In this document: one piece after another, positions 1 to 1,861 of the stretch
How the letters are laid out: every line of letters begins with the position of its first letter
Position numbering within the stretch: position 1 is the first letter of the stretch
IMG/VR virus record: IMGVR_UViG_2778261036_000014
Direction: 5' to 3' (one strand)
Length of the DNA stretch: 22,388 nucleotides
Origin: a virus
Taxonomy: Duplodnaviria; Heunggongvirae; Uroviricota; Caudoviricetes
Position numbers and translations under genes: made by a program
Notes under the pieces: generated by a model
What the model saw: the letters and a program-made list of their open reading frames with translations, nothing else
Told to the model about the DNA's origin: nothing
Database searches by the model: none

Positions 1-2
1 AG

Positions 3-995
3 GGGCTGCGTCACACACCCGGTGACATTATTGAAATCTGTGATAACGACTATGCCGGGACCATGACCGGCGGACGTGTCCTGTCCATCGATGCCGCCAG
101 CCGCACCCTGACGCTGGACCGTGAGGTGACACTGCCGGAGACCGGTGCCGCCACGGTGAACCTGATTAACGGCAGCGGTAAGCCGGTGAGTGTGGACATC
201 ACCGCACACCCCGCGCCGGACCGGATACAGGTCAGTACCCTGCCTGATGGTGTGGAGACATACGGGGTGTGGGGACTCTCCCTGCCGTCACTGTGCCGTC
301 GCCTGTTCCGCTGTGTCTCCGTCCGGGAAAACACGGACGGCACCTTTGCCATCACGGCGGTGCAGCACGTACCGGAAAAAGAAGCCATCGTGGATAACGG
401 TGCCCGCTTTGAGCCGCAGTCAGGTTCCCTGAACAGCGTCATCCCACCGGCAGTACAGCACCTGACGGTGGAGGTGAGTGCAGCTGACGGCCAGTATCTG
501 GCGCAGGCTAAATGGGACACGCCGCGGGTGGTGAAGGGCGTGCGCTTCAGTCTGCGCCTGACCAGTGGTAAGGGAACGGATGCCAGACTGGTGACCACCG
601 CCATCACCGCAGACACGGAGCACCGTTTCAGCGGCCTGCCGCTCGGGGAATACACCCTGACGGTGCGGGCGATAAACAGCTATGGCCAGCAGGGTGAACC
701 TGCCACCACCACCTTCCGGATTGCCGCACCGGCAGCACCGTCGCGGATTGAGCTGACGCCGGGCTATTTTCAGATAACCGCCACGCCGCATCTTGCCGTT
801 TATGACCCGACGGTACAGTTTGAGTTCTGGTTCTCGGAAAAGCGGATTGCGGATATCAGGCAGGTTGAAACCGCAGCCCGCTATCTTGGCTCGGCGCTGT
901 ACTGGATAGCTGCCAGTATCAATATCAAACCGGGCCATGATTATTATTTTTATATCCGCAGTGTGAATACTGTTGGCAAATCGGCATTCGTGGAG
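3..995 (+). pseudogene. J: Internal fragment of a lambdoid tail-tip host-specificity protein J gene; 5' end outside window, 3' end interrupted by the Mu-like prophage
   Basis: Frame is open from base 3; translation ([19 protein letters not shown]...[43 protein letters not shown]...[17 protein letters not shown]) matches my recollection of the central/C-proximal part of lambda J almost residue for residue. After ~995 the frame runs into AT-rich repeat DNA ([11 protein letters not shown]...) with no J-like character. Confidence 0.8.
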
Positions 996-1004
996 TATAG
1001 CGCG

Positions 1005-1095
1005 GCGATTTTTTTGATACCGATTTGCATTTCATTTGATACCGCTGAAAAACGCCGATACGCAACTTATTTGATACTAAATCGGCGCTTTTCTT
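1005..1095. repeat. Three direct repeats containing TTTGATAC just outside mom; candidate transposase-binding sites of the prophage right end
   Basis: TTTGATACCGATTTGC (~1012), TTTGATACCGCTGAAAAACGCC (~1043) and TTTGATACTAAATCGGCGC (~1070) lie between the J break and the mom stop. Spacing of roughly 27-31 bp resembles the multiple transposase sites at Mu ends; a GAAAAACGC stretch resembles the Mu right end as I recall it. Confidence 0.45.
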
Positions 1096-1123
1096 TTGAG
1101 TTTTAGAATGAGTTTTTAAGCGC

Positions 1124-1861
1124 TCATTCACTCTCTTTCAAACCAGTTTTAACTGTTTGTGGTTTTGGGTAAGGCTGGACTTTGAATAGCTTTGTGTTGA
1201 GGCGTTTTCTGGCCCTCTTGTTCAGAAACCGGATGTAACGAAACTGTCGGAACTTATGCACACTGGCTCTGTCGATATTAGCCCTCAGATGTTCACCTCG
1301 TTGTCCGCCTCGTTTAATGGCATTCCTGCAAATCTCGTGATACCACTCGCCATCAAGTTCATAGAATGTTGATTCATGGCTGCCTACATAATCAAAATTG
1401 CTTGCCTGATACACGACACCAAGACAGCCACAACGCTCATCTGCAAACGACTGAACCCACTGTACCTGCGGATAAAGCTGCCTGATTAGCTTGAGCGCGT
1501 AACTGATTGCCCTTGATTCGGAGTTTCTCGGCATACAGTCATGCATCCATAGCCGGTTAAGCTCCATATATTCTCGGTTCTGCGTACCCGTTACGACGCG
1601 TGCACCACTGTTTGGGTTAAGGGCGTAACCCCATTGCATTACGCCAACAAGTTCCCGTTCTGAAAATATACCCAGATGAAGGTAGGAATTATTTACGAAA
1701 CGGTGGCTGTAATGTTTATTGACGATAACCAGTCTGGCCAGCCAGCAACTTATTGTCTCAACCCGCAACTCACGGGAGCCATAACCAACGATATTGTCGT
1801 TATAGCGAATAAGTTCAGGCGTGCTGATGATACGGGATGTGACTTGCTTTCTGTTCCCCAC
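1124..1861 (-). CDS. mom: Mom-family DNA adenine modification protein (anti-restriction)
   Basis: 245-aa ORF as the last gene before the prophage end, overlapping the 3' end of a Com-like zinc-finger gene, as in Mu. Apparent start is GTG at 1861 and is uncertain. Confidence 0.75.

Follow-up and report, generated by a model that had tools for sequence, protein, structure and literature searches.

A probable insertion of an Sp18-type Mu-like prophage into gene J of a lambdoid prophage in Escherichia coli

The DNA analysed here very probably records the transposition of a Mu-like phage of the Sp18 type into the host-specificity gene J of a lambdoid prophage in E. coli. The window comprises all of contig NWOY01000051.1 (22,388 bp) of the draft E. 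coli assembly GCA_002475725.1, and the break that it contains within J is located exactly at the true right terminus of an Sp18-type phage, which lends support to the initial annotation in its proposal of a Mu-type transposition into the J gene of a resident lambdoid prophage. Since the same terminus is found in six other insertions, base 996 represents a transposition junction; J does not end naturally here, nor is the join a misassembly. The nesting of Mu-like phages in prophages is common and published (PMC10132054), Sp18-like examples have already been described and annotated, one of them in another J gene, and the window is a further instance.

The upstream part of the window is an internal fragment of J (Table 1). 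Its frame of 331 open codons matches Ig_J (E 1.4e-41) and, with a match cut at profile position 88 of 105, Ig_J_second (E 3.8e-35) in a Pfam search, these two matches representing the homology to the central Ig-like domains of gpJ. In a comparison with solved tail-tip structures the fragment furthermore aligned with residues 470-802 of the 1132 residues of lambda J (PDB 8iyk, E 4.7e-158), the alignment ending with ...VGKSAFVE and lambda E802 as the last matching residue. The Pfam matches and the alignment agree on a J-like frame that is open from the start of the window and matches lambda J up to ...SAFVE at about 995, as had initially been read. A full-length gpJ with its C-terminal fibre and receptor-binding domain is not encoded here, J being truncated; what is lost is the equivalent of lambda J residues 803-1132, within which the receptor-binding end of gpJ lies, and the claim that the receptor-binding C-terminus is cut off thus stands.

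At the DNA level, positions 1-995 are 100% identical to J of O157:H7 genomes among the matches listed, including that of the Sakai prophage Sp12, and for 218 records the best match reaches 99% or more. All matches listed end at base 995, and the comparison suggested for placing the break point therefore locates it precisely, as identity to lambdoid J genes stops exactly after this base. Uninterrupted J alleles run on for more than 1 kb past the break point. In the intact J of Sp12 the sequence across this point is GTGGAG followed by GCTGTCGG (also read as GTGGAG followed by GCTGTCGGTCGG), and in the window it is GTGGAG followed by TATAGCGCGG (also read as GTGGAG followed by TATAGCGCGGCG). The J frame continues for 36 foreign codons into the phage DNA before it reaches a TAG stop. 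The G+C content is 60.1% in 1-995 as opposed to 37.5% in 996-1123, and the latter stretch contains three TTTGATAC repeats and is followed by mom on the minus strand, in accordance with the earlier description of J giving way to AT-rich repeat DNA and then to mom on the opposite strand. No tRNA genes were found in the window, and a promoter scan near the junction gave no promoter above background.

Table 1. Features of the 22,388-bp window, with positions, strands and the basis of each assignment.
Feature	Position	Strand	Basis or remark
Internal fragment of lambdoid tail-tip/host-specificity gene J	1..995	+	frame 3-995; 5' end off contig
GGAG, predicted copy of the 4-bp target duplication beside the phage right end	992..995	.	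from 4-bp duplications of relatives and J at the break
J-frame read-through into phage DNA, 36 codons then TAG 1104-1106	996..1106	+	frame translation
Mu-like phage right end (attR), terminal sequence TATAGCGCGG, three TTTGATAC repeats	996..1123	.	G+C 37.5%
Right-hand 21.4 kb of Sp18-type Mu-like transposable prophage	996..22388	-	runs off contig end in head-morphogenesis gene
mom (DNA modification)	1124..1861	-	Pfam Mom, E 5.8e-77
com (zinc-ribbon translational activator of mom)	1815..2015	-	Pfam Zn_ribbon_Com
154-aa ORF, function not assigned	2130..2594	+	phrog_26524 (unknown function)
Cargo block	2633..5282	-	DUF826 2633-2878; DUF1378 2914-3096; 679-aa SASA-esterase/DUF6645 protein 3243-5282
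Gin-type serine DNA invertase	5382..5942	-	Pfam Resolvase and HTH_7
Invertible tail-fibre segment	6005..7389	.	182-nt inverted repeats 6005-6186 and 7208-7389
Mu-type tail fibre, baseplate (Gp48, J, Gp46, Gp45, GpP), DNA circularisation protein	7003..21943	-	gene-family matches
Tape measure, tube, sheath, head completion, major head gpT, protease I, virion morphogenesis	7003..21943	-	gene-family matches

The remainder of the window belongs to an element of the Sp18 type, of which 290 copies are found at many different sites in 235 of 5,426 complete E. coli genomes. Positions 996-22388 are colinear with Sakai Sp18 at 99.1% identity and are 99.9-100% identical to the copies found in ypdA (strain F8492) and beside dprA (SJ7), while the copy in irp1 (96_1414B) is 99.99% identical over 996-18900 and 95.7% identical over 18866-22388. 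The gene set and order are those of a Mu-type right arm, with mom, com, invertase and invertible fibre segment, baseplate, tail, gpT and protease I. The inverted repeats bordering the invertible segment are 79% complementary and enclose an alternative fibre tip and a fibre assembly gene; an invertible host-range (tail-fibre) segment is known for Sp18 (PMC2669165). The left arm of Sp18, which lies beyond the window, contains a transposase gene, the product of which matches Mu-transpos_C (E 1.5e-17) and HTH_Tnp_Mu_1, and downstream of it the gene of an ATPase matching Phage-MuB_C (E 2.5e-25). A direct sequence search of the transposase against solved MuA chains gave no match and only weak matches to retroviral integrase cores, and the protein is therefore a distant relative of MuA.

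Some additional properties of the element may be mentioned. The 154-aa ORF at 2130-2594 has no Pfam match, is found on the strand opposite to that of its neighbours and lies in the region of an AT-rich stretch (2000-2400, G+C 37%), and is a possible moron or accessory gene. The cargo block, located between the invertase and com/mom, is of a kind found in Stx phages, the gene of the 679-aa esterase being 77-81% identical at the DNA level to Stx-phage regions, and some of these matches are annotated as 9-O-acetyl-N-acetylneuraminic acid deacetylase (yjhS). Judged by such similarities the block looks like a lambdoid-type module aboard a Mu-like phage. A hexamer tandem repeat (CGGCTT, 5.8 units) is found at 18866-18900 inside an HI1506-related head gene, the length of which is 369 nt in the window, 387 nt in SJ7 and Sakai and 399 nt in F8492 and 96_1414B, and from these sequences the repeat is an in-frame VNTR.

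The nature of base 996 is most clearly seen from the other copies of the element. This base, the T of TATAGCGCGG, is likewise the element boundary in the insertions found in sorM, in ypdA, in irp1, beside dprA, in another J gene and in an Stx2c phage, and the far (left) terminus in these six is ...CCTGGTTACA, the left end sequence of the phage being ...CACCTGGTTACA. The element accordingly has a defined terminus with repeated end motifs, common to copies at unrelated loci. At the right end the TGATAC start of the TTTGATAC repeats is found at 1015-1020, 1037-1042 and 1072-1077, and when counted from the outside inward the first repeat lies 20 nt in from both termini, with further sites at 42 and 77 nt at the right end and at 115 and 167 nt at the left end. 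These repeats are presumed transposase-binding sites, and both the equal distance to the first site at the two ends and the ensuing gap at the left end resemble the arrangement of end repeats in Mu.

A 5-bp target-site duplication had been expected for the insertion. The relatives of the phage instead show 4 bp in six of six copies: TCAG in ypdA, AACA in SJ7, where the copy is located between dprA and a recQ-family gene, GTAA in irp1, AGGT in J of Show KS 470-1, GATG in the Stx2c phage LC727881.1 and TAAA for Sp18 in sorM. A reading of the duplications as 5 bp is impossible for SJ7, 96_1414B and Sp18, and the GenBank record of LC727881.1 itself annotates a duplication of 4 bp. The same follows from an empty-site test, in which the ypdA site rebuilt with a single TCAG matches in one piece over 396 of 396 bases among the genomes listed, 1227 records matching it at 99% or more. 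The right ends of the Sp18 type furthermore read ...CGCTATA-3', that is TA-3', and the left ends start with TGTAACC; the 5-bp duplication and TG...CA termini by which Muvirus is recognised are thus both absent from this type of phage. A 4-bp stagger together with a TA-3' right terminus would imply a transpososome geometry unlike that of Mu. In the literature searched, no paper linked 'Mu-like' with '4-bp', and these two properties of the lineage are of possible interest to specialists in transposition.

From these observations a simple course of events can be proposed. The Sp18-type phage would have integrated by transposition into J of a resident lambda-like prophage, its right end (the mom side) being joined to J directly after the codon matching lambda E802, and the J frame would then run for 36 codons into the phage end and stop, giving a product without some 330 C-terminal residues, the receptor-binding end included. 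The left end of the phage would abut the remaining J with a duplication of GGAG, and the predicted left junction is thus ...CCTGGTTACA, GGAG and GCTGTCGGTCGG in succession, or in string form CCTGGTTACA followed by GGAGGCTGTCGGTCGG. An insert of about 38.8 kb would also make the lambdoid genome much too long for a lambda-type head, the packaging limit of which would be exceeded by a lambda-type genome with such an addition. In this proposal the phage copy of the window would be complete, and its host prophage would have lost whatever function remained to it.

The left 17 kb of the phage and the remaining J must be on other contigs, and we infer by analogy with related insertions that J would resume beyond the left end. 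The exact right junction (GGCATTCGTGGAGTATAGCGCGGCGATT) had no match in collections of viral genomes, species-representative genomes and metagenomes, the predicted left junction (CCTGGTTACAGGAGGCTGTCGGTCGG) had none in genome and metagenome collections, and a search of the 5,426 complete E. coli genomes for a junction of J and phage yielded only the non-identical analogue of Show KS 470-1. Of eight guessed 5'-truncated J products (two 3' alleles, each with four start codons) six were found by exact look-up; they occur, however, on between 1 and 46 contigs from numerous strains and are thus not specific to the insertion. The contig stops at 22388 inside a head-morphogenesis gene without any sequence anomaly. 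The genome may hold another Mu-like copy, identical in part, which would account for this break; Show KS 470-1 offers a parallel.

Other explanations for the abrupt end of J may be considered. The frame 3-995 could be a different, intact gene ending naturally near 1000, a counter-case already raised by the initial annotation, but nothing except the stop codon at 1104-1106 speaks for this and its probability is practically nil, since J genes that are 100% identical continue for about 1 kb more, the Ig_J_second match is cut at 88 of 105 and the last 36 codons consist of terminal-repeat DNA of the phage, common to copies at unrelated loci. It is barely conceivable that a Mu-like particle took up the 995 nt of J as host DNA at its variable end, so that the sequence would represent virion DNA and not a chromosomal prophage. 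Mu-type heads do package host DNA past the right end and J indeed flanks the phage on the mom side, but the record derives, as a contig, from the assembled genome of a bacterium, and the heterogeneous flanks of virions would not give one clean sequence of 995 nt. It is likewise highly unlikely that short-read assembly of the draft fused a J repeat to a Mu-like repeat and so made a chimera, even though the source is a draft contig and both J and the phage are potentially multi-copy. The join is found exactly at the terminal nucleotide set by six independent insertions, which a random chimera would not achieve, and even with a mis-resolved assembly graph a read across the junction of J and phage end must exist. 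We reject all three of these explanations.

It is also possible, although unlikely, that base 996 is a true phage end but not the product of a simple insertion, the two halves of J having been split by later replicative transposition or recombination. This would cover an adjacent deletion or inversion as well as homologous recombination, whether it joined two phage copies or involved the J genes of separate prophages, and the 3' portion of J would have been deleted or placed elsewhere. The end of the contig within the phage without anomaly at 22388 fits a second, partly identical copy, two phage copies are indeed present in Show KS 470-1, each O157 genome holds 8-12 J-like copies, and J alleles that are identical over 1-995 differ at their 3' ends, which indicates recombination among J genes. 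No direct sign of such a rearrangement was seen, however, and both nested copies that can be read on two sides, those of Show KS 470-1 and LC727881.1, prove to be simple insertions in which the 4-bp duplications agree. A simple insertion into J by transposition therefore remains the preferred explanation.

The functional significance originally attached to the loss of the J terminus appears overstated. The insertion would disable the tail tip of the lambdoid prophage and make its genome unpackageable, but both identical J alleles that were checked, those of Sakai Sp12 and EDL933, are already frameshifted pseudogenes. Their frameshifts fall outside the stretch that matches the window, and both alleles are found in the context of a lambdoid tail operon, preceded by tail assembly genes and followed by lom and side-fibre genes. 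Sp12 is moreover listed as multiply defective (PMC2669165). Since the two alleles are already broken, no new biology follows from the interruption, and its functional weight is uncertain and probably small. The 3' ends of the Sp12 and EDL933 J genes show 297 differences, starting 497 nt past the break point, which as a sequence pattern points to mosaic J genes. J alleles that agree throughout 1-995 diverge at their 3' ends, so that a match over this stretch does not single out the prophage that hosts the insert.

Nor is the location of the insert surprising. J-like copies of about 3.4 kb each, present 8-12 times in an O157-type genome, amount to roughly 0.6% of the genome, and by a rough estimate one or two J insertions among 290 phage copies correspond to random expectation. 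Prophage DNA furthermore accounts for about 16% of the Sakai genome (PMC2669165), and nesting in prophages is therefore to be expected and to be tolerated by the host. The notion that Sp18-type phages prefer lambdoid prophages, or persist better in them, and are a recurrent means of disabling competing prophages could be derived from the two independent J insertions, the insertions in Stx phages and the 6 of 10 CC119 copies residing in mobile elements, but we consider it doubtful. The insertion described here is one more strain-specific landing of a mobile Sp18-like phage and means little beyond bookkeeping, although it could be used as a strain marker; collectively, Sp18-like insertions add to prophage decay and strain variation in Shiga-toxin-type E. 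coli.

Among known systems, Sp18 of O157:H7 Sakai is like the phage of the window in its gene order (mom, com, esterase cargo, invertase, invertible fibre segment, tail, head) and in its termini, and has a 4-bp duplication. The two differ by 136 mismatches and 26 gap openings, including the difference in length of the hexamer repeat at 18866-18900, and Sp18 sits in sorM, outside any prophage. The closest parallel to the nesting is found in the O157:H7 strain Show KS 470-1 (NZ_CP038309.1, about 2,154,943-2,194,239), where a second Mu-like prophage of the same type and orientation lies inside a lambdoid J gene. The interrupted J is annotated as a pseudogene without its C-terminus, and at the left end of the phage, beyond the duplicated AGGT, the remaining J resumes in frame and is followed by lom and tail-fibre genes. 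Unlike the window, this insertion concerns a different allele of J, of about 90% identity, and arose independently at a point 277 nt closer to the 3' end. The CC119 STEC Mu-like phages in LC727881.1 and LC727895.1, which are Stx phages of about 93 kb each with an annotated Sp18-like insert, are about 95% identical to the phage of the window, but the insert of LC727881.1 follows an ORF ending in ...LTLEEIKAHLRVDHDADD and is not in J. In CC119 STEC, 6 of 10 Sp18-like phages are found in mobile elements and several Stx phages carry them (PMC10132054), and strain-specific Sp18-like insertion sites are likewise seen when FRIK804 is compared with Sakai (PMC7430833).

Mu itself shares with the Sp18 type the transposition to unrelated sites, the clustered end repeats, the right-end location of mom and com, an invertible fibre segment of the Gin type and head and tail genes of the Mu type, and Sp18 in turn resembles Mu in the domains of its transposase (Mu-transpos_C and Mu DNA-binding) and in the MuB-type ATPase that comes next. 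The Sp18 type is however set apart by an extra block of esterase cargo between the invertase and com. Furthermore, the right terminus of Mu is CA-3', whereas that of the Sp18 type is TA-3'. The target duplications differ as well, being 5 bp for Mu (PMC5977238) and 4 bp for the Sp18 type.
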